From: a virus
Direction: 5' to 3' (one strand)
Length of the DNA: 64,000 nucleotides
IMG/VR virus record: IMGVR_UViG_3300014819_000003
Coordinates: 1-64,000 of that record
Positions within the stretch are counted from its first letter, which is position 1. Every line of letters starts with the position of its first letter. This document shows positions 35,808 to 46,262 of the stretch, piece by piece. The notes beneath the pieces were generated by a model. It worked only from the letters and a program-made list of their open reading frames with translations. It did no database searches and was not told where the DNA came from. The position numbers were made by a program, and so were the translations under genes.

Positions 35808-36533
35808 ATGGCTACTGAGATATATAAAATAGAAAAAATAAACTTGGTTGATGGAACAGAACTTGAAATAGTTCCATTAAAAATTAAATACCTAAGAGAG
35901 TTTATGACAACATTTGATGCCATACGTGTAACAAAAAATGATCAAGAAGCAATATTAGTATTATCAGAATGTGTTAGAGTATGTATGAAACAATATCATC
36001 CATCTATATCTAAAACAATAGAAGATATTGAAGAAAATCTTGATCTTCCAACAGTATATAAAATATTAAATGTTGCTGCTGGCATTAAGGTGGATAAAAA
36101 ATCAGAAGAGCCTGTAAAAGATCAAGCAACTAATAGTGGTCCAACCTGGGAAACATTAGACTTAGCAAATTTAGAATCTGAGGTATTTTTGCTCGGTATT
36201 TGGAAAGACTATGATGAATTAGAAACTTCTATGTCTATGCCAGAACTTATGGCTACCATTTCAAGTAAGCGTGAACTAGATTATGAAGAAAAGAAGTTCT
36301 TGGCAGCAATTCAGGGAGTAGACCTAGATGCTAACTCTAAGTCATCAGATGGCAAACAGCGAGGGCAGCAAGAATGGGAAGACCTTAAAGCAAGAGTATT
36401 TAGTGGTGGTAAGGCAAGAGATGGAAATGACATTCTTGCACTTCAAGGACCTGCTGCTGAAAAGGCAGGGTTTGGTATTGGTATGGGTCTAGATTATGAT
36501 GACCTACGTGATCCTTCAATAATGAAAAATTAA
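35808..36533 (+). CDS. tail assembly chaperone, long (G+T-like fusion)
   Basis: N-terminal ~100 aa paralogous to 36584; between tail tube and tape measure. Confidence 0.75.
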   Translation: MATEIYKIEKINLVDGTELEIVPLKIKYLREFMTTFDAIRVTKNDQEAILVLSECVRVCMKQYHPSISKTIEDIEENLDLPTVYKILNVAAGIKVDKKSEEPVKDQATNSGPTWETLDLANLESEVFLLGIWKDYDELETSMSMPELMATISSKRELDYEEKKFLAAIQGVDLDANSKSSDGKQRGQQEWEDLKARVFSGGKARDGNDILALQGPAAEKAGFGIGMGLDYDDLRDPSIMKN

Positions 36534-36583: not shown

Positions 36584-36913
36584 ATGGCAACAACAACGTA
36601 TGAGAGCCAAGAACTTTCCCTTATGGATGGTACGAAAATCACAGTGAGACCATTAAAAATCTCATTGCTTCGTCCTTTCATGACTAAGTTCGAAAAAGTG
36701 GCAGCGGTGGCAGACGATAACGAAAAGTCAATGACTCTTCTTGTCGAATGTGTGGAAATTGCTATGAAGCAGTTCAATCCAGAACTCGCTGATGTTAAGA
36801 AACTTGAGGAAGTTCTAGACCTTCCAACAGTTTATAAGATCATTGAGGCTGCTTCGGGGGTCAAACTCCAAGACGCATCTGCTTTGCTAAATGCAGCACT
36901 TGCAACAAACTAA
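36584..36913 (+). CDS. tail assembly chaperone, short (G-like)
   Basis: position; AGGAGG RBS; own promoter. Confidence 0.75.
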   Translation: MATTTYESQELSLMDGTKITVRPLKISLLRPFMTKFEKVAAVADDNEKSMTLLVECVEIAMKQFNPELADVKKLEEVLDLPTVYKIIEAASGVKLQDASALLNAALATN

Positions 36914-36938: not shown

Positions 36939-39900
36939 GTGGCTGATGTTAACGCAAATATTGGCGTACATATTGACACCTCTGCAACTATTGCTCAACT
37001 CAAGGCACTACGTGCTGAGATATCTAGATTTAATCAATCTGTAATAAAATCAAGCGCTTCTGCTGCTATAGCACAGCGTGATCTACAAACCAACCTAGTA
37101 AATGCTATAAATGCCACTGGCAAATTCCATGCCAAGATGGGCTTAATTAGAACATCTACAGAGTCCTTTACACATGCCCTTGAAACCAATAAACTTTCAA
37201 TGCGTGAGTACTTCAGGTACGCTGGCGGGGCAAGTACAACATTCCGTAAACTATTTACAAAAGAATTTGACACTATAAGTCAGGTTGCTGCAGACCGTGT
37301 AAAGAGAATGCAGACTCAATATGTTAAGTTGGGTCGTGATGCATCTGGAGCAATGAAGGCAATATCCATAACTCCTACAACCTTAAATATGAAGGACTAT
37401 GGAACTCAAGTTGCAATGGCAGCACAGAGACAGGCACTTTTAAATCAATTATTGAAACAAGGATCAACTAATCTATTAAATTTTGGTAAGAATACTCAAT
37501 GGGCTGGTCGCCAGTTGATGGTTGGTTTTACAGTTCCACTAGCCTATCTTGGAACATCAGCAGCCAAAACATTTATGGCAATTGAAGAACAGGTTATCAA
37601 ATTTAAACGTGTTTATGGTGAAATGTTTACTACTTCAGACCAAACAAATAAGGCTTTAGAGGACGTTAGAAGGCTTGCTGAAGAATTTACAAAATATGGT
37701 GTTGCTGTAGAAAAAACAATTGAACTTGCAGCAAAGGCTGCTGCTACAGGTAAGATGGGTGCAGATCTTACTGCACAGGTTGCAGAAGCAACAAGGCTTG
37801 CTGTTCTTGGTGGAGTTGAACAAGAAGAGGCTCTAGATACAACAATTTCATTAACAAATGCATTTGGAATAGCGGCTGCAGATTTAAGTAAAAAGATTGA
37901 CTTCCTTAACGCAGTAGAAAACCAAACAGTTGTATCTATTGAAGATTTAACTATTGCAGTTCCAAAGGCTGGACCAGTTATTCAGCAACTAGGCGGTAAT
38001 GTAGAAGACCTTGCATTCTTTTTAACTGCCATGAAAGAAGGTGGCATTAATGCATCTGAAGGTGCTAACGCTCTAAAGTCTGGTCTTGCATCTCTTATTA
38101 ATCCAACAGATAAAGCATCCAAAATGTTGGGTGAGTTGGGAATTAATATTAAGGGAATTGTTGAAGCAAATAAAGGAAATGTAAAAGGCGTAGTTCTTGA
38201 TTTTGCTGCAGCATTAGACACTCTTGATCCACTAAATCGTGCTCGTGCTATTGAACAATTATTTGGTAAATTCCAGTTTGCTCGTTTATCTACTTTATTT
38301 TCAAATGTTTCTAAAGAAGGAACACAGGCATCAAGGGTATTAGATTTAGCAACTGCATCAGTTGAAGAACTTGCTATTATTTCAGAACGAGAATTAAAAG
38401 CAGTAGAAGATGCTATTGGAACAAATTTTAAAGAAGCAGTTCAGCAGTTAAGACTTGCTTTAGAGCCAATAGGAAAAGAATTTTTAAAAGTTATCACCCC
38501 TATAGCACAAACCATAGCAAACCTTTTAGATAAATTTAATAATCTTGGCGACGGAACAAAGAAATTTATTGTTATTGCTACAACATTAGTAGGGGTAATA
38601 GGACCAACATTTTTGATGACATTTGGTTTGCTTGCTAACGCAGTTGCTAATATTATTAAATTATTTACAACAATGCGTGGTGGATTTTTAAGGCTTAAAG
38701 GTGGATCAGCAGTCCTTGCAGAACAAACAAATTATTTAACCAAAGAGCAAATGGAGGCAACAACTGTTGCTGCTGCTCTTGATCAAGCACATAATAGATT
38801 AACTCAAAGATTTACATCAGAGGCTGTAGCATTACAGAAACTAAGAGCAGCATTTGATAGTGCTTCTGCAGCGCAGGCAAGATTTGCTGCTACCAATCCA
38901 GGAATGATGATTCCAGGATTTAAAGGTGCAAAGAAATTTAATTTTGGAACCATGAAAGTTCCAGGGTATGCAAAAGGAACTGACACAGTACCTGCAATGC
39001 TTACACCTGGAGAAGCAGTTATTCCAGCAGACATAGCACAAGATGAAAGATTTAAACCAATCATTCAGGCACTAGTAACTGGAGATCTTCCAGGATATCA
39101 AGATGGAACTGAGGGAGTTGGTAAACAGTCTGGAAGAAAACTCAAACAAACAGTATTTTTTGATTTTGATGATACCTTGGCTAGAAGCACATCTGCTATA
39201 GAACAATGGAAAGCAGAACGTGGAATCACTGGCAAGACTACACCAGAAATGTATGATGCATTTAATAAAGATGTTGTTGCTGGAAGAAAAGTTCCAATCA
39301 TACAAGAAAATATTGATAAACTAAAAAGACTTCAGGCTGCTGGTGTTGATGTTAGAATTTTGACTGCTAGAACTGCAAATGAAACTAACTTAGAATCACT
39401 TAAAAAAGTTTTAGCATCAAATGGTGTAATAATCCAAGATAGTAAAATTCAATTAAATAATACTGGAGATACTGATGCAAAATTTAAAGCATCACATATT
39501 AAGGGCTTTTTAAAAGATAATCCAGATTCTAGAGCACAGTTAATAGATGACAAAATAGAAAATGTAAAAGCAGTAAGAGCACTAAGTTCTGCAAAAGATA
39601 TGTCTAAGAGATTTGGTGCTGTTGTTACCTCTGCTGCTGTCGAACCTGCCGAGTTTGTTAAGATGAAAGACGGAGTTCTTGGAGTTAAGTTCCAAGGAAG
39701 AACTTATCCAGTTGGAGAAAATGAAGCAAAAGCAAAAGCAGTTGTTACTAAACTCAATGATGAACTCGCTGCTCAAAAATCACAAGAAGGAAGAATTAAA
39801 ACTGCAAACTGGGCAACAAACAGATTTGGGGAACTAGTAGATGCTAGAGACAAAGGTAGATTAATAAGCACATCAAGAATTTGGCGTAAAGAACGTGGTA

Positions 39901-42900
39901 GAGGTGGAATTAATTATGTAGTTAGAAAAGCGCTAAATGATCTTGCTGGTGGAAGCAGTTATGAAAACCTAATTAAGGCTCGTCAAAATTCGGAACAAAA
40001 ACTTGTTATGCAGGCCTTGGAAGACTATCAAAAGAGGACTGGAAAAGCCTTAACACCAAAACAAATTGAGCAGGCTTTACAGATTCAAGCATCACATGTG
40101 TGGCCAAGTAAAGATGAAACAGGAAGACAACTTAAGTTTGATGATCCATTAAAATGGCAGCGTGGTCATGTATTTGATGATTTAGGAATTCTTAATAATT
40201 ATTTGAATAGAACTGGAACAACTAGAACTGGTCAGCCTACAGCATTTCAGAAAGTTGCAGATGCATTTTTACAAGATGATGAATTTACTAAACAATCTGG
40301 ATTAAATAAACAACAACTTTATAAAGATTTAGAATGGGCTAGACAAAATAAACAACCAACAACAATGCAGGAACTGCAATCTATCAAGAGATTAGCAGAA
40401 CTTGATCAAATAATGAGTAATGCTGGAGTTTATACAAATAAGTCAGTAATTGATAGACTTGGTATTCGTGGAGTTGGAAACTTACAGTCACTAGCGAATG
40501 GTATTTATCAAGCAGAAGTGTCTGGTAAATTAGTTGCTGCTCGTGGTCCAGAATGGGCTAAAGGACTTGCAGCGAGAATATTAGATTTAGCAAGTATGAA
40601 ATCTGTAGCAAAAGGTGGAGCACCATTAGCAGAATATGATTTTGCTGTTGCTAGAGGAGAAAGAATAAAATCAACTGCTGGATCACGTACAGTAACAGGT
40701 GCAACTGGAAGAAAGAAACCAGCATCTACTAAGGCTGTAGGTCCTTCGGCTGGTCCAAAAGATACCAGATTGATTACATCAAAAGGCGTAAAGTCTATTA
40801 CTCCAGTAAGAGTTGGTCGTTTTGCTTATGGAGCAGAGGGTGGATTTGGAGATCAACGTGTTGCTGGTTCAACTACCGCTCAAGAAATAGCAAGAGAACG
40901 AAGAATAAGTCTTAATGAAGCAAAGAAACTTCTTGCACAAGAAAGAAAACTTGCTGAGGCAAGAGCAGCGGGTACTGACGTAACAGAAGAATCTGGTAAA
41001 GCAACATCTCAAAAAACTGAACTAGATAAAAAACAATTACAGCAGATGAGATATGAAAGAGTTTCTAGAATATCATCTCCAGTTGCAATGGCATCTGGAA
41101 CTGCAGTTATGGCTGGAGCAATGATGGGAGCGCCAGAAGGATTTACAAAAATGATGCTAGGCGTTTCTGTTATTTCTTCAATCCTACCATTAATGACAAA
41201 TCCATGGATGCTTGCAATTGCTGCAGTTGTAGGTACTGGTGCATTATTATTAAAATTTAATAATGATATAAAGAAGGCAAGAGAAGCAGGCATAAATCTT
41301 GCCAAAGCAATGACAATGAGTGCTGATGATGTAAAAGAATTAAGCATGATGACTGGAAAACCTAGTGCGTCAGAAATTGCAGATAGACGTAGAAAAAATA
41401 TTCTTGGTGGTGGAATAACAGAGCCACAACGTCAATTTGGTCAAAATGTTTTAGAAAGTGAATTTGGTAAAAAATTATTGGCTGATGTTCAAACATTGTC
41501 TAAAACTGGAATGCAGCCAAAAGATGTTGCAAAAAATATTTCTACACAGTTAGGGCAAGCAGTTCTTCAAGGAGTAATAACTATGAAAGAAGCAGCAAGT
41601 ATTGCTTCTGCTCTTGGAGAAAAATTAGGAAGTTATGAAATACCATTAAATATTACTGGTAATTTAAATCAAATATTTGGTCCAAATGGAGAAAATTTAA
41701 AAACAGATCCATTAAGAATTGCTTTAGAAATTAAAAAAGATTCAATAAATACACAAGCACAAGCATTTCAACAAGCAATAGCAAATAGAAAACCAACAGT
41801 TGGCCTTGGTGCAGCACAAACTATTGGTGGTGCTACTGCTGCTGGTGCTGCAATTGGAGCAGGAATTGGTGCATTTGGAGGTCCATTTGCTCCAGTTACT
41901 GCCACTGGTGGTGCTGCTATTGGTGCTGTGGTTGGTGCAATTGGCGGTACTGGTGCAGCAATTATTAATGAAGGTGATAAAGCAAAAAATGCAAAGTTAG
42001 ATGCGGCAGCACTTCAGTTAGGTATTGAACTTGTAGCACAAAACCAAGATCTTGTAGACTCACTTAATCAACAATATGATGTCAAAGTTAAACAGGCCAA
42101 GACAACTGCAGAAATAGATGCTATAGAAAAAGAACGTAAAGCAGCGGTAGATAGACTAAATGCAGAAAATACAAAAACACTACAGTTGTTGATTGAACAA
42201 AGAAAACAAATGGGCGACGGTACATTTAATGCTGCTATTAAGGCTGCAGCAGATGCAATGTATAAAGAAGGCCCAATGGCTGTTTTCAAAGATCAGGCAC
42301 TAGAAGCATTAAATTCTTTAGAGAGTTCAGATTTTAAAGCACAACTACAACTTGGTTTTGCATCTGGAGATATAGATCCGCTTACATTAACAAATATATT
42401 AAACCTATCTGCACAAAATAAACCTATACAGCAAGATATACAATTTTTAATTAATACAGAAGGTTTTGCAGACATGGCCGTGCTTACGCAACTTCTTAAC
42501 TCAGTTGCTATTGATCCAAAAACAGGAAAAGCAGACCCACTAGTTTTTCAAACTATTTTAAGTTATATAAATAAAAATGAACAAACTTTTGATGAAGATC
42601 TTGAGGCAGTTCGTCGTATTGCTGATTTTAAAGGTGCATACAACGTAACACTAGACGCAAAAACAAATGGTATTGAAAAACTTCAAATTGCTACAACAGC
42701 ATTAAAACAAATTGAAGATCTTCCAGAAAAAGTTACTAAACAAGCACTTATTGATGCAAATACAAACGGACAGTTTAATGATATTATTGCAAACTGGTCA
42801 GCACTTTCTCAAGGTAAAGATTTAATTAATAAAAATCTTATAGTAAATTATAAAGTCGGTGCAATAGATCCAAATTTGCAAAATGCTGCTAAGGCTGCAA

Positions 42901-45900
42901 ACCAAAGTGTTCCAGAATTTTTGGCTAAAGGGTTTGTTGCTCCAACACCAACTAATATTCCGCCAACAGAAACTCCTGGGCCTAAAAAGGGTAGAGATAC
43001 AACACTTGATGAATTATTAAAAAGACTTAAGTTTATTCGCAAAGCATCTATTGATGCACAAGGAGGAGTAAAAGAACTAGAAAGAATAACTGCTGGCAAA
43101 GGACTTACCAAGTTTAATGGAGTAGTACAACAACTTGCTGCTGGTCCAAAAGGTGGTTTTAATAGAGAGTTTATTTCATTCCTTGAGGGAATGGATAATG
43201 CAACTCGTAAAACATACATGACCATTAAAAATGGACAGGTCATTCTTACTAAACAAGGCAAGGCACTCAAAGAAGCATTTAATGAAAAAGTAATAGGTGA
43301 ATATCAAGTAGCACAGTTCCAAGCAGTTCAGGATACTAAGGCTCAGGGTGCAGCACTTGCTAAATTACGTGCTGCTGGAATTGATTCTGCCACCGCTCTT
43401 GAAATGGTCGCTGACGCTAATCTTGCAGTAGCAATAAATAGCAAAAATATTTCATCTGCAGAACTTAAGAATATGGCTACACAAGCCCAGGAAGCAAAAG
43501 ATAAAGTAAGAGAACTAAATCTTGAACTTCAAGGAACTGTTACAACAATGGTTGGTCGTGGTCAAGAACTAGATGAAACAATTAAAGTTATATCAAGAAT
43601 AAAAGAAATAAATCCAAATGTTTCTTCTGAATTCCTACAGGCTCTTGCTTCTGATAAAACTGCTGTTCAAGGTTTTTATGATGCATTTTTCAAAGGTGCA
43701 CAAAATAATGTACCTAATCTAAAAGATTATATAGATACATACTTTAAGAATAATCAATTAGAAGTAACTCTTAAAGGTATTTTAGATCCACAAGAACTTG
43801 TAAGACAGGCTCAAGAAGCATTTGATAAAGCATCATCTACTATTGATAAATATCTAAGTGCACAAAGAGCACAGGCAACTCTTCAGGTTGCACCACCAAC
43901 ACTAATGAATGAACTAGGTAGAAATCTACAAGTTGCACAAGATACATTAGTAGAAGCAGAAACAAATCTACAAAATATAAAGGATGCAACTGGAAGAACT
44001 ATAACAAACTATCAGTCCGAAATAGATGCCCTAAGACGAGAACTTGATGCTGGACTAGAAATAGAAATCAGAAAACTTACTGAACAGATAAAGGCTGAAC
44101 AGGATAAGATTGCTGCAGAATATGACAAGCCAATTGAAGGTCTTCGTAAGAACATTGAAAAAATTCAAAGAGATATTGAGATTAATTTTACAAGACCAAT
44201 TGAAGAGTTAAATAATCAAATTGATGATATTCAGCGAGGTATAGAACTAAACTTTGATCGTCCAATTGCTACACTACAAGAAGAATCATCTGACCTATCT
44301 AATGAATTAACCTTGATGGATAAGGTTGCAGAGTCTATAAATAAGAAATATGATGAACAAGCAGCAGCCTTGCAAAAAGTTGCAGATATTAATCAAGAAA
44401 TATCTGATCAACAAAAGGGACAATTAGATCTTGCTGGTGCATTAAGCCGTGGAGATGTTGCTGCTGCTGCTCAGGCTGCACAAGAGATGAGAGCACAGGC
44501 AGCGGCACGTGCAAAAGAACGAGCATCTGGAGTAATAGAAGCAGCAAGACAGGCAGAACTTGGAGGACTACGTTCTGCTACTGGAATGACCAGAGCACAA
44601 ATAGAAGAACGTCAGTTCCAAATTAGCCAACAAATATTCCAACTTGAAGAACAAAAAGAAGCACAGTTAACTAAAGTAACTGAACTTCAAGATCAAATTT
44701 ATGCTAAAACACAACTTCTTGAAGTTGAACAACGTAAGATTCGTGACCTTGAAGACCAGATTTATGCAAAAGAAGTTGCACGTCAAGCAGCACTAGATGC
44801 CTTAATTCCAAAGCAAGAACTATTAACAGATTTGGAAAAGAAACGTGCTGCCGCTCTTGAAAAGATTGCAGAAAAAGAAGATGCTATATCAAAAATTAAA
44901 AACTCACAAGCATATAAAGATGCTGAAAAGGCTGTTGCAGATGCTCAAAAGGCTGTAGATGCTGCTCAAAAGAAACTTGATGATATTGAAAAGAAATTAA
45001 GAGATGCGCTTGCTAAAGTTGATGCACAACAAGCAAAATGGGACGATATTAAACTTGGTATTGAAGGTGCTCAAGGCGCTGTAAAAGACTTTGATGCAGA
45101 GTTAGCAAATGCAAAAATAGCAGCAGATAAATTAGCAAAGGCAATTGCTAGTGTTGTTTCTGCAGATGCAAACATTACTGGCGCTGATGTATTTGGAAAT
45201 GGTTTAGGTACAAGTACGGTTACAGATGAATATGGATTAGATCCAAAAGATCCAGACTATCAAGAAAAACGTAGAGCAAGACAGGGTATTGGAATGGGTG
45301 CAGGTACAAAAACTGCAACAAAAGAAACTGCAACAAAGGCTCTTGCAACCAACCTTAATTCAGCAGCAACTTCTGCTACAGTTGTTCAAACAGCACTAGG
45401 AAAAATAGCAGAACTATCTAAACTTTCTGCTGTAGATCAAGAAAAGATTGCAACCTCTATTGTAAAACAGGCAGAACAGTCTGGACTGTTAAAGAGTGCA
45501 GAAGAAGCAATAACTCAGTTTATTAAAGATCAGGTGACCCCATCAGAACAAATAGCAACTAATACTAAGAATATGCTTGATTCTTTAGTTGCTGCAATAG
45601 TACCAGCCAATACAATTGCTGGAATATTTAATTCAATTTTAAGCACTGCAAATGCAATTTATCAAAGAATCTTAAGTTGGAATACAACAGTAACAACAGT
45701 ACATAATATTATAGAAAATGTAACAAGAAACATTACAGAATATATAACACAAATAATTAAACAAGTAGTTGATACTGGTCCAGGTAAGATGTATGGTGGA
45801 AAGATTACTGGATACATGGGTGGAGGTATGGTAAAGCCAATGTATCTTGCTGGTGGTGGCGCTATTGGATCTGATACCGTGCCAGCGATGCTAACTCCTG

Positions 45901-46262
45901 GTGAGTTTGTTGTTAATAAAGCATCTTCACAAGCATTTGCTCCTTTCTTAACAGCAATTAATGAAAGTAAATATCCTTCAATTTTGGCTAAAAATATATC
46001 AAATGCTAGACCAATATATCAAATTCCAATACAAACATCTTTATCTCAGCCATCATATGATATATCCTCTCCAGTATTTAGTGCATCTCCAACAAATATT
46101 GCAAATGCTGCCTATAACGATAACTCCAGTTCAGTGTATAATTATAGTGTTGGAATTAGTGTTGGTGGAACAAATGCTTCTCCAGATACAATAGCAAAGG
46201 CAGTAATGAACGAAATTAAATATCTAGACTCTCAGCGAGTTAAAAGTCAGAAGGTTTCATAA
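36939..46262 (+). CDS. tape measure protein with inserted HAD-phosphatase and other cargo domains
   Basis: 3107 aa, Ala-rich helical; TP901-like core; DTVPAMLTPGE x2; DFDDT HAD motif. Confidence 0.93.
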   Translation: MADVNANIGVHIDTSATIAQLKALRAEISRFNQSVIKSSASAAIAQRDLQTNLVNAINATGKFHAKMGLIRTSTESFTHALETNKLSMREYFRYAGGASTTFRKLFTKEFDTISQVAADRVKRMQTQYVKLGRDASGAMKAISITPTTLNMKDYGTQVAMAAQRQALLNQLLKQGSTNLLNFGKNTQWAGRQLMVGFTVPLAYLGTSAAKTFMAIEEQVIKFKRVYGEMFTTSDQTNKALEDVRRLAEEFTKYGVAVEKTIELAAKAAATGKMGADLTAQVAEATRLAVLGGVEQEEALDTTISLTNAFGIAAADLSKKIDFLNAVENQTVVSIEDLTIAVPKAGPVIQQLGGNVEDLAFFLTAMKEGGINASEGANALKSGLASLINPTDKASKMLGELGINIKGIVEANKGNVKGVVLDFAAALDTLDPLNRARAIEQLFGKFQFARLSTLFSNVSKEGTQASRVLDLATASVEELAIISERELKAVEDAIGTNFKEAVQQLRLALEPIGKEFLKVITPIAQTIANLLDKFNNLGDGTKKFIVIATTLVGVIGPTFLMTFGLLANAVANIIKLFTTMRGGFLRLKGGSAVLAEQTNYLTKEQMEATTVAAALDQAHNRLTQRFTSEAVALQKLRAAFDSASAAQARFAATNPGMMIPGFKGAKKFNFGTMKVPGYAKGTDTVPAMLTPGEAVIPADIAQDERFKPIIQALVTGDLPGYQDGTEGVGKQSGRKLKQTVFFDFDDTLARSTSAIEQWKAERGITGKTTPEMYDAFNKDVVAGRKVPIIQENIDKLKRLQAAGVDVRILTARTANETNLESLKKVLASNGVIIQDSKIQLNNTGDTDAKFKASHIKGFLKDNPDSRAQLIDDKIENVKAVRALSSAKDMSKRFGAVVTSAAVEPAEFVKMKDGVLGVKFQGRTYPVGENEAKAKAVVTKLNDELAAQKSQEGRIKTANWATNRFGELVDARDKGRLISTSRIWRKERGRGGINYVVRKALNDLAGGSSYENLIKARQNSEQKLVMQALEDYQKRTGKALTPKQIEQALQIQASHVWPSKDETGRQLKFDDPLKWQRGHVFDDLGILNNYLNRTGTTRTGQPTAFQKVADAFLQDDEFTKQSGLNKQQLYKDLEWARQNKQPTTMQELQSIKRLAELDQIMSNAGVYTNKSVIDRLGIRGVGNLQSLANGIYQAEVSGKLVAARGPEWAKGLAARILDLASMKSVAKGGAPLAEYDFAVARGERIKSTAGSRTVTGATGRKKPASTKAVGPSAGPKDTRLITSKGVKSITPVRVGRFAYGAEGGFGDQRVAGSTTAQEIARERRISLNEAKKLLAQERKLAEARAAGTDVTEESGKATSQKTELDKKQLQQMRYERVSRISSPVAMASGTAVMAGAMMGAPEGFTKMMLGVSVISSILPLMTNPWMLAIAAVVGTGALLLKFNNDIKKAREAGINLAKAMTMSADDVKELSMMTGKPSASEIADRRRKNILGGGITEPQRQFGQNVLESEFGKKLLADVQTLSKTGMQPKDVAKNISTQLGQAVLQGVITMKEAASIASALGEKLGSYEIPLNITGNLNQIFGPNGENLKTDPLRIALEIKKDSINTQAQAFQQAIANRKPTVGLGAAQTIGGATAAGAAIGAGIGAFGGPFAPVTATGGAAIGAVVGAIGGTGAAIINEGDKAKNAKLDAAALQLGIELVAQNQDLVDSLNQQYDVKVKQAKTTAEIDAIEKERKAAVDRLNAENTKTLQLLIEQRKQMGDGTFNAAIKAAADAMYKEGPMAVFKDQALEALNSLESSDFKAQLQLGFASGDIDPLTLTNILNLSAQNKPIQQDIQFLINTEGFADMAVLTQLLNSVAIDPKTGKADPLVFQTILSYINKNEQTFDEDLEAVRRIADFKGAYNVTLDAKTNGIEKLQIATTALKQIEDLPEKVTKQALIDANTNGQFNDIIANWSALSQGKDLINKNLIVNYKVGAIDPNLQNAAKAANQSVPEFLAKGFVAPTPTNIPPTETPGPKKGRDTTLDELLKRLKFIRKASIDAQGGVKELERITAGKGLTKFNGVVQQLAAGPKGGFNREFISFLEGMDNATRKTYMTIKNGQVILTKQGKALKEAFNEKVIGEYQVAQFQAVQDTKAQGAALAKLRAAGIDSATALEMVADANLAVAINSKNISSAELKNMATQAQEAKDKVRELNLELQGTVTTMVGRGQELDETIKVISRIKEINPNVSSEFLQALASDKTAVQGFYDAFFKGAQNNVPNLKDYIDTYFKNNQLEVTLKGILDPQELVRQAQEAFDKASSTIDKYLSAQRAQATLQVAPPTLMNELGRNLQVAQDTLVEAETNLQNIKDATGRTITNYQSEIDALRRELDAGLEIEIRKLTEQIKAEQDKIAAEYDKPIEGLRKNIEKIQRDIEINFTRPIEELNNQIDDIQRGIELNFDRPIATLQEESSDLSNELTLMDKVAESINKKYDEQAAALQKVADINQEISDQQKGQLDLAGALSRGDVAAAAQAAQEMRAQAAARAKERASGVIEAARQAELGGLRSATGMTRAQIEERQFQISQQIFQLEEQKEAQLTKVTELQDQIYAKTQLLEVEQRKIRDLEDQIYAKEVARQAALDALIPKQELLTDLEKKRAAALEKIAEKEDAISKIKNSQAYKDAEKAVADAQKAVDAAQKKLDDIEKKLRDALAKVDAQQAKWDDIKLGIEGAQGAVKDFDAELANAKIAADKLAKAIASVVSADANITGADVFGNGLGTSTVTDEYGLDPKDPDYQEKRRARQGIGMGAGTKTATKETATKALATNLNSAATSATVVQTALGKIAELSKLSAVDQEKIATSIVKQAEQSGLLKSAEEAITQFIKDQVTPSEQIATNTKNMLDSLVAAIVPANTIAGIFNSILSTANAIYQRILSWNTTVTTVHNIIENVTRNITEYITQIIKQVVDTGPGKMYGGKITGYMGGGMVKPMYLAGGGAIGSDTVPAMLTPGEFVVNKASSQAFAPFLTAINESKYPSILAKNISNARPIYQIPIQTSLSQPSYDISSPVFSASPTNIANAAYNDNSSSVYNYSVGISVGGTNASPDTIAKAVMNEIKYLDSQRVKSQKVS

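Follow-up and report, generated by a model that had tools for sequence, protein, structure and literature searches.

Tape measure proteins (TMPs) of phages are usually seen as rulers and channel formers, at most with wall-cutting domains, and the locus described here raises the question of whether such a protein may also bring a phosphatase into the host cell. The locus lies in a stretch of viral DNA of 64,000 nucleotides, hereafter called the window, which corresponds to positions 1 to 64,000 of the IMG/VR virus record IMGVR_UViG_3300014819_000003. One uninterrupted open reading frame (ORF) with a GTG start codon, at positions 36939-46262 on the plus strand, codes for a protein of 3,107 amino acids (P0001). 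This protein is a TP901-type TMP of a siphophage: it scored 91.3 bits with PF10145 (cut-off 33.2) and 92.1 bits with TIGR01760 (cut-off 28.8), and it matched phrog_10030, annotated as 'tail length tape measure protein', with an E value of 4.5e-102. An earlier interpretation, made from the letters alone and hereafter called the sequence-only reading, had proposed that the TMP carries a HAD phosphatase and a second domain as cargo in a variable slot. All the motifs on which it drew were located where it had placed them, within this one ORF.

The HAD domain of the tape measure protein

The segment directly after the first of the two PGE motifs of the TMP, in which the sequence-only reading had recognised a HAD phosphatase domain, is a member of the HAD superfamily by its motifs and its fold, belonging to phrog_415 and to no curated HAD subfamily. 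The match of the isolated segment to phrog_415 had an E value of 6e-16. This family is labelled polynucleotide kinase, yet its profile, of 218 positions, has the size of a HAD domain; other PHROG neighbours of the segment included 5'-3' deoxyribonucleotidase and GmhB-like families. All four HAD catalytic motifs are intact in the insert (Table 1). The domain was first aligned with P0047, a free-standing protein, and two relatives from IMG/VR; another 36 relatives were added later, giving 40 members in total, across which residues D742, D744, T746, T809, R811, K850, D870, D871 and N875 were invariant at identities of 24-80 %. Several HAD models of Pfam and NCBIfam matched the segment, all of them below their cut-offs, and searches of PDB sequences with the segment, with HAD profiles and with a profile of the whole TMP gave no significant match. 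The stretch following the HAD domain is basic, as had been noted earlier, with 21 lysine and arginine residues versus 12 aspartate and glutamate residues in amino acids 901-1000.

The structure of the domain was predicted with AlphaFold2 from the four-sequence HAD alignment, with a predicted local distance difference test (pLDDT) score of 77 and a predicted template modelling (pTM) score of 0.75. The model has a Rossmann-like core of five strands alternating with helices, in which motif I follows the strand formed by model residues 10-16, and, where a HAD cap would be, a small insert of two helices. The domain had been described as capless; the model instead shows this small cap, shorter than that of the free-standing relatives. 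All Foldseek matches of the model at E ≤ 0.001 were HAD enzymes, among them Lem4, an effector of Legionella, as well as phosphoserine phosphatases and acid phosphatases of classes B and C. The sequence-only reading had named PNKP 3'-phosphatases as capless HADs of this kind. In VIA-align, the 3'-phosphatase of T4 Pnkp came first, by a narrow margin, with Z 12.8 for both 5uj0_B (root mean square deviation (rmsd) 3.0 over 128 aligned residues) and 2ia5_I (rmsd 2.7 over 126 aligned residues), and Nir2 and Pnkp1 came next. Z was higher than 8 for 234 chains, and the entries shown were HAD-fold proteins, almost all of them phosphatases. In the T4 Pnkp phosphatase, essential arginine residues contact the polynucleotide. 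The invariant arginine of the TMP HAD follows motif II (LTAR, R811), and the basic residue after motif I varies, being R, K or N.

Distribution of the insert and the adjoining conserved domain

A search of 5.8 billion proteins with amino acids 690-1290 of the window protein gave 33 other TMPs, all approximately 70 % identical to it over amino acids 1-727. Among the approximately 40 homologous TMPs, only P0001, P0002, P0003, L001 and L002 carried the HAD domain, which was identical to that of the window in P0002 and 78 % (L001), 58 % (P0003) and 51 % (L002) identical in the others. Most homologues pass directly from '...ALVSG.I.KY..GT.NVG' to 'G[KR]SFTTRSQ', the latter corresponding to 'FQGRTYPVGENEAK' at amino acid 918 of the window protein. 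Collinearity with the HAD-less homologues breaks at amino acids ~728-731 and resumes at ~915-928. The insertion site is situated about 35 residues past the first 'PGEAVIP' motif, and the PGE motif is separated from the QASH motif further downstream by 151 amino acids in most homologues, by 175-252 in some and by 343-363 in the HAD carriers. The junctions of the HAD domain were in frame in five independent assemblies, 51-100 % identical, which rules out a chimeric assembly as the source of the insert.

In a tree of the N-terminal 690 residues of the TMPs, the three HAD carriers having this N-terminus formed one clade with a support of 100/100, indicating that the domain was gained once and then descended vertically. 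The GC content at third codon positions (GC3) of the insert was 0.150, equal to that of the rest of the TMP gene; because of this, and because the carriers form one deep clade, a recent horizontal gain of the domain was rejected. When the window was compared with L001, the ratio of nonsynonymous to synonymous substitution rates (dN/dS) was lowest in the HAD domain (0.158) and 0.23-0.46 in the other regions compared; the corresponding comparison with L002 was saturated. As judged from these substitution rates, the HAD domain is under purifying selection and is the most constrained of the TMP regions compared. The gene as a whole is mosaic: identity between the window and L002 (7916-15418) was 80 % at the N-terminus, 28-35 % in the middle and 72 % over aligned stretches of amino acids 2000-3100, and this unevenness points to recombination inside the TMP gene.

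Of the variable cargo slot that the sequence-only reading had envisaged, the variability was upheld: the site is indel-prone, the gene is mosaic and the HAD domain is optional. Within the N-terminal half of the TMP, variation is greatest in the segment that follows the first PGE motif. Most homologues have no filler at this site, some have 25-100 amino acids of low complexity (e.g. 'NAQPFANSPQFQPK...'), and in P0019, P0032, L096 and L099 a different block of approximately 300 amino acids is present, replacing the whole QASH region. The exchange of one enzyme for another did not find the same backing. Pfam scans of four relatives (P0019, P0004, P0033 and P0046), three of which carry other inserts at the site, found only PF10145 and no other enzyme, and the HAD domain was gained once. 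The domain can be described as a single cassette gain in an indel-prone, variable linker, and a swappable slot is weakly supported. The distant TMPs L096, L097 and L099, from contigs of metagenome-assembled genomes (MAGs), and P0042 have other blocks after the PGE motif, one being a shared motif of the pattern '...V[YF]VKP..D...ALAEQRAT.IARD.HGL.APKQE...'. The PGE motif recurs near the C-terminus, as the sequence-only reading had noted; the two motifs are approximately 2,290 amino acids apart and both common to the TMP family, PGEA[VI][VI]P being present at amino acid ~690 in every full-length homologue, and they do not fence the HAD cassette.

The region downstream of the HAD domain, which had been taken for a second cargo domain of weak His-Me nuclease character, is a conserved domain of the TMP and not cargo. 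It contains QASHVWP (amino acids 1050-1056, positions 40086-40106), RGHV (40161-40172) and NNYL (40194-40205), and it was found in almost all homologous TMPs irrespective of the presence of the HAD domain, the exceptions being P0019, P0032, L096 and L099. Residues H1053, W1073, N1086, N1087, Y1088 and N1090 were nearly invariant across the homologous TMPs. AlphaFold2 prediction from an alignment of 29 sequences gave a pLDDT higher than 90 over approximately 180 residues (amino acids ~1020-1200, model residues ~60-240). In the model, H1053 ends a strand (1049-1053), and a further strand (1077-1082) is followed by a helix (1083-1092) bearing N1086, N1087 and N1090. This strand-strand-helix arrangement is compatible with the beta-beta-alpha-metal topology, though far from proving it; for such a finger, a connection of 23 residues and an enclosing helical domain would be unusual. 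The best Foldseek match of the model had an E value of 0.38, the best Z in VIA-align among 48,161 chains was 4.3, with none reaching 5 and no row being a nuclease, and the ESM Atlas yielded nothing. No sequence match was obtained in Pfam, PHROG, NCBIfam or PDB, although these sequence and structure comparisons could overlook a motif of 40 residues within a domain of 190. It was also considered that 'Q-E-S-H ... NNYLN' might mark a lytic transglycosylase; this was rejected, the glutamate being alanine in most homologues and no lysozyme-like fold having been matched. The predicted fold is possibly new, and the conserved histidine of the QASH...NNYLN domain could be catalytic.

The features of the TMP gene are collected in Table 1; hydrophobic segments were identified in a Kyte-Doolittle scan over 19 residues with a mean of at least 1.6.

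Table 1 Positions of the TMP gene, the HAD insert and other features of the protein in the window
Feature	Position	Strand	Remarks
TMP gene	36939..46262	+	3,107 aa, GTG start; PF10145, TIGR01760, phrog_10030
Conserved TP901-type TMP core, aa 208-545	37560..38573	+	TIGR01760 span; ~70 % identity in all homologues
First hydrophobic membrane-type segment, aa 542-576	38562..38666	+	Kyte-Doolittle
First GTDTVPAMLTPGEAV motif, aa 680-694	38976..39020	+	Family-wide
HAD cassette, aa 728-914 (~187 aa)	39120..39680	+	Absent from most homologous TMPs; phrog_415, E 6e-16; AlphaFold2 model m6f3d91597226
HAD motif I, VFFDFDDTL, aa 739-747	39153..39179	+	Nucleophile D742, acid/base D744, T746 (predicted roles); D16/D18/T20 of the alignment, invariant
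HAD motif II, RILTAR, aa 806-811	39354..39371	+	T809, R811; L82/T83/A84/R85 of the alignment, invariant
HAD motif III, AKFKA, aa 847-851	39477..39491	+	K850; K124 of the alignment, invariant
HAD motif IV, LIDDKIENV, aa 868-876	39540..39566	+	D870, D871, N875; D144/D145/N149 of the alignment, invariant
Conserved globular domain QASH...W...NNYLN, aa ~1015-1205	39981..40553	+	Invariant H1053, W1073, N1086/N1087, Y1088, N1090
Hydrophobic segment, aa 1422-1440	41202..41258	+	Kyte-Doolittle
Gly/Ala-rich hydrophobic segment, aa 1650-1677	41886..41969	+	Kyte-Doolittle
Second DTVPAMLTPGEFV motif (DTVPAMLTPGE copy near the C-terminus), aa 2979-2991	45873..45911	+	Family-wide

The TMP gene is part of a tail module of ordinary siphophage layout, in which genes for a head protease, the capsid and an Ig-domain tail protein are followed by two chaperone-like paralogues, the TMP and minor tail proteins; downstream of the TMP, phrog_10359 (minor tail protein) and phrog_9983 (tail protein) were matched. 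The paralogue pair upstream of the TMP is located at 35808-36533 and 36584-36913, and phrog_10504 matched the first ~100 residues of both, the longer paralogue (35808-36533) having an additional C-terminal part that matched phrog_10474. The whole record is an IMG/VR virus contig of 91,275 bp, estimated to be 84 % complete, in which no tRNA genes were found. It is low in GC (TMP gene: GC3 15 %, overall GC 36.5 %), and from the GC3 of the TMP gene the host is presumably very AT-rich. The nearest TMPs of cultured phages were those of Streptomyces phages, with approximately 29 % identity over the N-terminus only. MAG bins containing related TMPs were labelled Chitinophagia, Acidimicrobiaceae, Bifidobacterium, Methylococcus and Crocinitomicaceae; these labels are inconsistent and probably reflect binning noise.

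The free-standing family and its other fusions

When amino acids 690-1290 were compared with 1.84 billion representative sequences using phmmer, one HAD-only relative, P0047, was found, and a word-based search with the single HAD sequence gave no match. Neither blastn of the region nor tblastn of the HAD domain, P0047 and one giant HAD protein gave a match among 50,697 GenBank phages. With a HAD profile, more than 4,278 free-standing proteins were found, of 96-343 amino acids, most of them ~190 amino acids long and unannotated and some being assigned to Pfam DUF2608 (PF11019). These free-standing phage HADs (phrog_415, e.g. P0047) are the true sequence family of the insert, with 24-32 % identity, and have the signature DFDDTL...LTAR...K...DD..N in common with the TMP copies. 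They start directly at motif I, have no signal peptide and stand alone, and we know of no member that has been characterised. Whereas the free forms have a near-invariant 'D..DYSDF' cap loop, the TMP copies lack seven cap-loop residues, including the near-invariant 'DYSDF'. The missing residues may reflect trimming of the cap in the TMP copies, which would recall the clamp-less, flattened RNA polymerase of gp96 from the Thermus phage P23-45.

At least 123 loci were found when IMG/VR was scanned using the profile of the family. Among the 78 that were examined, the HAD domain was free-standing in 42, part of a mid-sized fusion in 6 and part of a giant ORF of 2,500-3,200 amino acids in 30, in which it sits approximately 1,560-1,670 residues into the protein. 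The giants (L017:333-7811, L025:54-7961, G005 = L092:8069-17629 on the minus strand, and about 27 more loci) belong to phages of ~60 kb and are 43-51 % identical from the HAD domain to the C-terminus; their N-terminal halves differ, and HExxH occurs at varying positions. They had no PHROG match and no relative among cultured phages, no conserved DxDxD RNA polymerase signature was found in them, and Pfam gave only a weak, sub-threshold match to DUF5763 on L017.

The complete 59-kb genome G005 contains, in order, genes for terminase, portal, capsid-module proteins, a 2,500-amino-acid protein, a 601-amino-acid protein and the HAD giant of 3,186 amino acids. The 2,500-amino-acid protein matched PF25731 and PF25729, the muzzle protein of Crassvirus. 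Genes that follow the muzzle gene in crAss001 code for cargo and giant RNA-polymerase-associated proteins, which are packed in the virion and ejected before the DNA (PMC10172136). In a tree of the HAD domains, constructed with a quick method and having long stems, the TMP copies (support 100) and the giant-protein copies (support 99) formed separate clades, each among free-standing forms. This separation indicates two independent captures, and on these phylogenetic grounds the family was captured a second, independent time by giant proteins of crAss-like phages.

Further fusions were also observed. The ORF L061:4290-6878 (862 amino acids), with counterparts in L055 and L070, codes for a three-part fusion with the HAD domain in the middle, an N-terminal part of nucleotidyltransferase-like character ('GGFKPITGAHL') and a C-terminal domain of ~440 amino acids with the ligase-like motif 'EKTDGQN' (KxDG), which was not confirmed by Pfam or PDB. 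In the ESM Atlas, L061 corresponded to viral clusters in which 23-24 % of the members bear DUF6267. In BFVD, HAD folds were present in A0A6J5NAI8, A0A6J5R419, A0A6J5N6Z6, A0A218ML07 and A0A218MMX7, which are annotated as prohead protease or XkdF or are proteins of 1,000-1,500 amino acids from uncultured viruses, and which may represent additional virion-linked HAD fusions.

Probable function and delivery of the insert

On balance, the HAD domain of the TMP is probably a working phosphatase that is brought by the virion into the host at infection. It is read as a working phosphatase because its invariant motifs are intact and its constraint is the strongest among the regions compared, and it would be a Mg2+-dependent phosphomonoesterase, with D742 as the nucleophile, D744 as the acid/base residue and D870/D871 binding Mg. 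The domain would have originated from a free-standing phage HAD of ~190 amino acids, inserted in frame into the indel-prone linker in the ancestor of a small TMP sub-lineage. As a part of the TMP it would be housed in the lumen of the tail and ejected along with the rest of the protein when the phage infects, reaching the host membrane or the cytoplasm with the leading DNA, before phage gene expression. In siphophage tails the C-terminus of the TMP is at the tail tip and exits first, so that the HAD domain, being in the N-terminal quarter of the protein, would be among the last parts to exit, immediately before the DNA. Delivery to the cytoplasm, as the sequence-only reading had proposed, is suggested for the window phage on three grounds: TMPs are expelled by nature, the HAD family is present in positional counterparts of crassvirus cargo, and there is a published precedent in gp96, the 5,002-amino-acid TMP of P23-45, whose N-terminal part is an active virion RNA polymerase, the full-length protein being present in virions and detected on the phage's DNA 5 min into infection (PMC10770324). 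Effectors of contractile injection systems that derive from TMPs are also known to carry exchangeable functional domains (PMC13277306).

The substrate would most likely be, as for the T4 Pnkp 3'-phosphatase, a nucleotide or a nucleic-acid end that bears a phosphomonoester, although a phosphoprotein or another small molecule is possible. A nucleic acid or nucleotide bearing a 3'-phosphate is suggested by the Pnkp-like fold as well as by the PHROG label, and the structural likeness to Lem4, an injected phosphotyrosine phosphatase of Legionella, keeps phosphoproteins among the candidates. Healing of nucleic-acid ends, which had been suggested as a possible function of the cargo, agrees with the Pnkp-like fold and disagrees with the gene content, described next, and because a phosphatase without a kinase and a ligase cannot repair RNA alone, a role in RNA repair is speculative.

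Several points weigh against the delivery of such an enzyme or against its likeness to Pnkp. In the 84 %-complete genome there was no match to the PF13671 kinase or the PF09414 RNA ligase, and no P-loop kinase was found in the TMP; an RNA ligase accompanied free-standing HADs in only 7 of 40 records, in one of them near the HAD gene. The best Pfam HAD model, PF03767, scored 22.2 bits (E 1e-4) versus a cut-off of 27, and the best NCBIfam HAD model, TIGR00099, 20 bits versus a cut-off of 137. Foldseek placed class C acid phosphatases and phosphoserine phosphatases first, with the T4 Pnkp phosphatase at rank 36 (E 2.7e-3), and the lead of T4 Pnkp over generic HADs in VIA-align was only 1-2 Z units. 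A folded domain of ~160 amino acids would need to fit the tail lumen and to refold after ejection, delivery requires that the TMP's N-terminal part reaches the cytoplasm, and the virion status of the crAss-like HAD giants is deduced by analogy, from gene order only.

The class B family PF03767 is periplasmic, and together with the class C and class B acid phosphatases at the top of the Foldseek results, the hydrophobic segments flanking the HAD domain and the action of the known enzymatic domains of TMPs on the envelope, it could be taken to indicate an enzyme acting outside the cytoplasm, which would remove phosphate from an envelope component of the teichoic-acid, lipid-carrier or lipid A type. 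We consider this unlikely, since the start of the free-standing members at motif I, with no signal peptide, points to a cytoplasmic ancestral enzyme, VIA-align favours T4 Pnkp and Pnkp1, and the same family is found in crAss-like giants whose positional counterparts are cytoplasm-bound cargo. The domain might instead act in the producing cell before tail assembly, for example as a nucleotidase fused to a late protein, its packaging being incidental; most family members are small, free-standing and encoded in large phage genomes, and the deoxyribonucleotidase and GmhB-like families among the PHROG neighbours would suit such a role. This explanation, too, is improbable, as two independent fusions to virion-module proteins and the prohead-protease fusions in BFVD would be difficult to account for if packaging were of no consequence, it would be odd for a metabolic enzyme to sit on a late-only, chaperone-held protein, and the trimming of the cap loop in the TMP copies only suggests adaptation to a new setting.

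The sequence-only reading in its full form, with a swappable slot after PAMLTPGE and two cargoes, a HAD phosphatase and a His-Me nuclease, would fit the variation at the post-PGE site, where fillers of 0-100 amino acids and the ~300-amino-acid block of P0019, P0032, L096 and L099 occur, and also the QASH model, which is predicted to be beta-beta-alpha-like with an invariant histidine at a strand end and asparagine residues on a helix. That the QASH domain is family-wide and independent of the HAD domain, that it matched no nuclease family or fold, and that the HAD domain was gained once, with the scans of four relatives revealing no other enzyme at the site, nevertheless makes this model very unlikely. 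As the length of the TMP sets the length of the tail, any insert lengthens the ruler, and the HAD fold could in principle serve as a non-catalytic spacer, plug or interaction domain in the tail. Such a role can hardly be credited for a domain in which every catalytic residue is invariant down to 24 % identity, in all five TMP copies as well, and in which dN/dS is the lowest among the TMP regions compared.

If the TMP does deliver a phosphatase, the enzyme would arrive before gene expression and could remove a phosphate needed by host defence or by an early step of infection, candidate targets being a phosphoprotein, a signal that is phosphorylated, or RNA ends with a 3'-phosphate or 2',3'-cyclic phosphate produced by defence nucleases. 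A catalytically intact TMP phosphatase would extend the idea derived from P23-45, of a TMP delivering a cytoplasmic enzyme, to small effector enzymes, and the capture of the HAD family by two different injection scaffolds strengthens this extension. It may be suggested, as a tentative and rather doubtful generalisation, that the small phage HAD family is a recurrent 'first-minute' effector that was built independently into siphophage TMPs, crAss-like cargo and perhaps prohead-protease fusions. Such a pattern would suggest that infection, within its first seconds, includes a phosphate-dependent step that is worth pre-empting. The new elements are a large, unstudied phage HAD family, here defined, its two independent captures, and an adjoining conserved TMP domain without a known fold. 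No paper describing a HAD phosphatase in a TMP was found in full-text searches, and the terms 'HAD', 'phosphatase' and 'tape measure' did not occur when a survey of polyvalent proteins (PMC5512222) was searched for them; to our knowledge a HAD phosphatase in a TMP is unpublished, TMP-embedded enzymes as such being known.

Among proteins of known structure, T4 Pnkp (5uj0, 2ia5, 1ltq) and Pnkp1 (4xrp) are the best neighbours of the HAD model, with Z of 11.5-12.8 and rmsd of 2.7-3.2 over 121-130 aligned residues. Like the TMP HAD, their phosphatases have a small cap and the motifs DxDxT, T/S, K and DD, but the identity is only 16-19 % and hmmsearch against PDB gave no significant match; furthermore, T4 Pnkp has a kinase domain whereas the TMP has none. 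The TMPs of T5 (pb2) and mycobacteriophage TM4 carry muralytic or Rpf-like motifs, which, like the HAD domain, are modules in the ruler protein that are expelled with it. Those modules act on peptidoglycan outside the membrane, whereas the HAD domain of the window belongs to a family of cytoplasmic enzymes and is a putative phosphatase.

The virion cargo of crassviruses (crAss001 gp45-gp50, PMC10172136) and the polyvalent proteins (PMC5512222) are large, multidomain proteins that are packaged and ejected ahead of the DNA. The scaffold of the crassvirus cargo and of the HAD giants differs from that of the window protein in not being a TMP. The closest parallel in this respect is gp96 of P23-45, with its relatives in P74-26, G20c and TSP4, in which the enzyme is fused to a TMP as part of one polypeptide, as is the HAD domain of the window. 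Both enzymes appear slimmed, gp96 being a clamp-less RNA polymerase and the window HAD having a shortened cap loop. The polymerase of gp96 comprises approximately 800 N-terminal amino acids and has been studied experimentally, whereas the HAD domain of the window, known from its sequence, is an internal domain of ~160 amino acids situated after amino acid 727.

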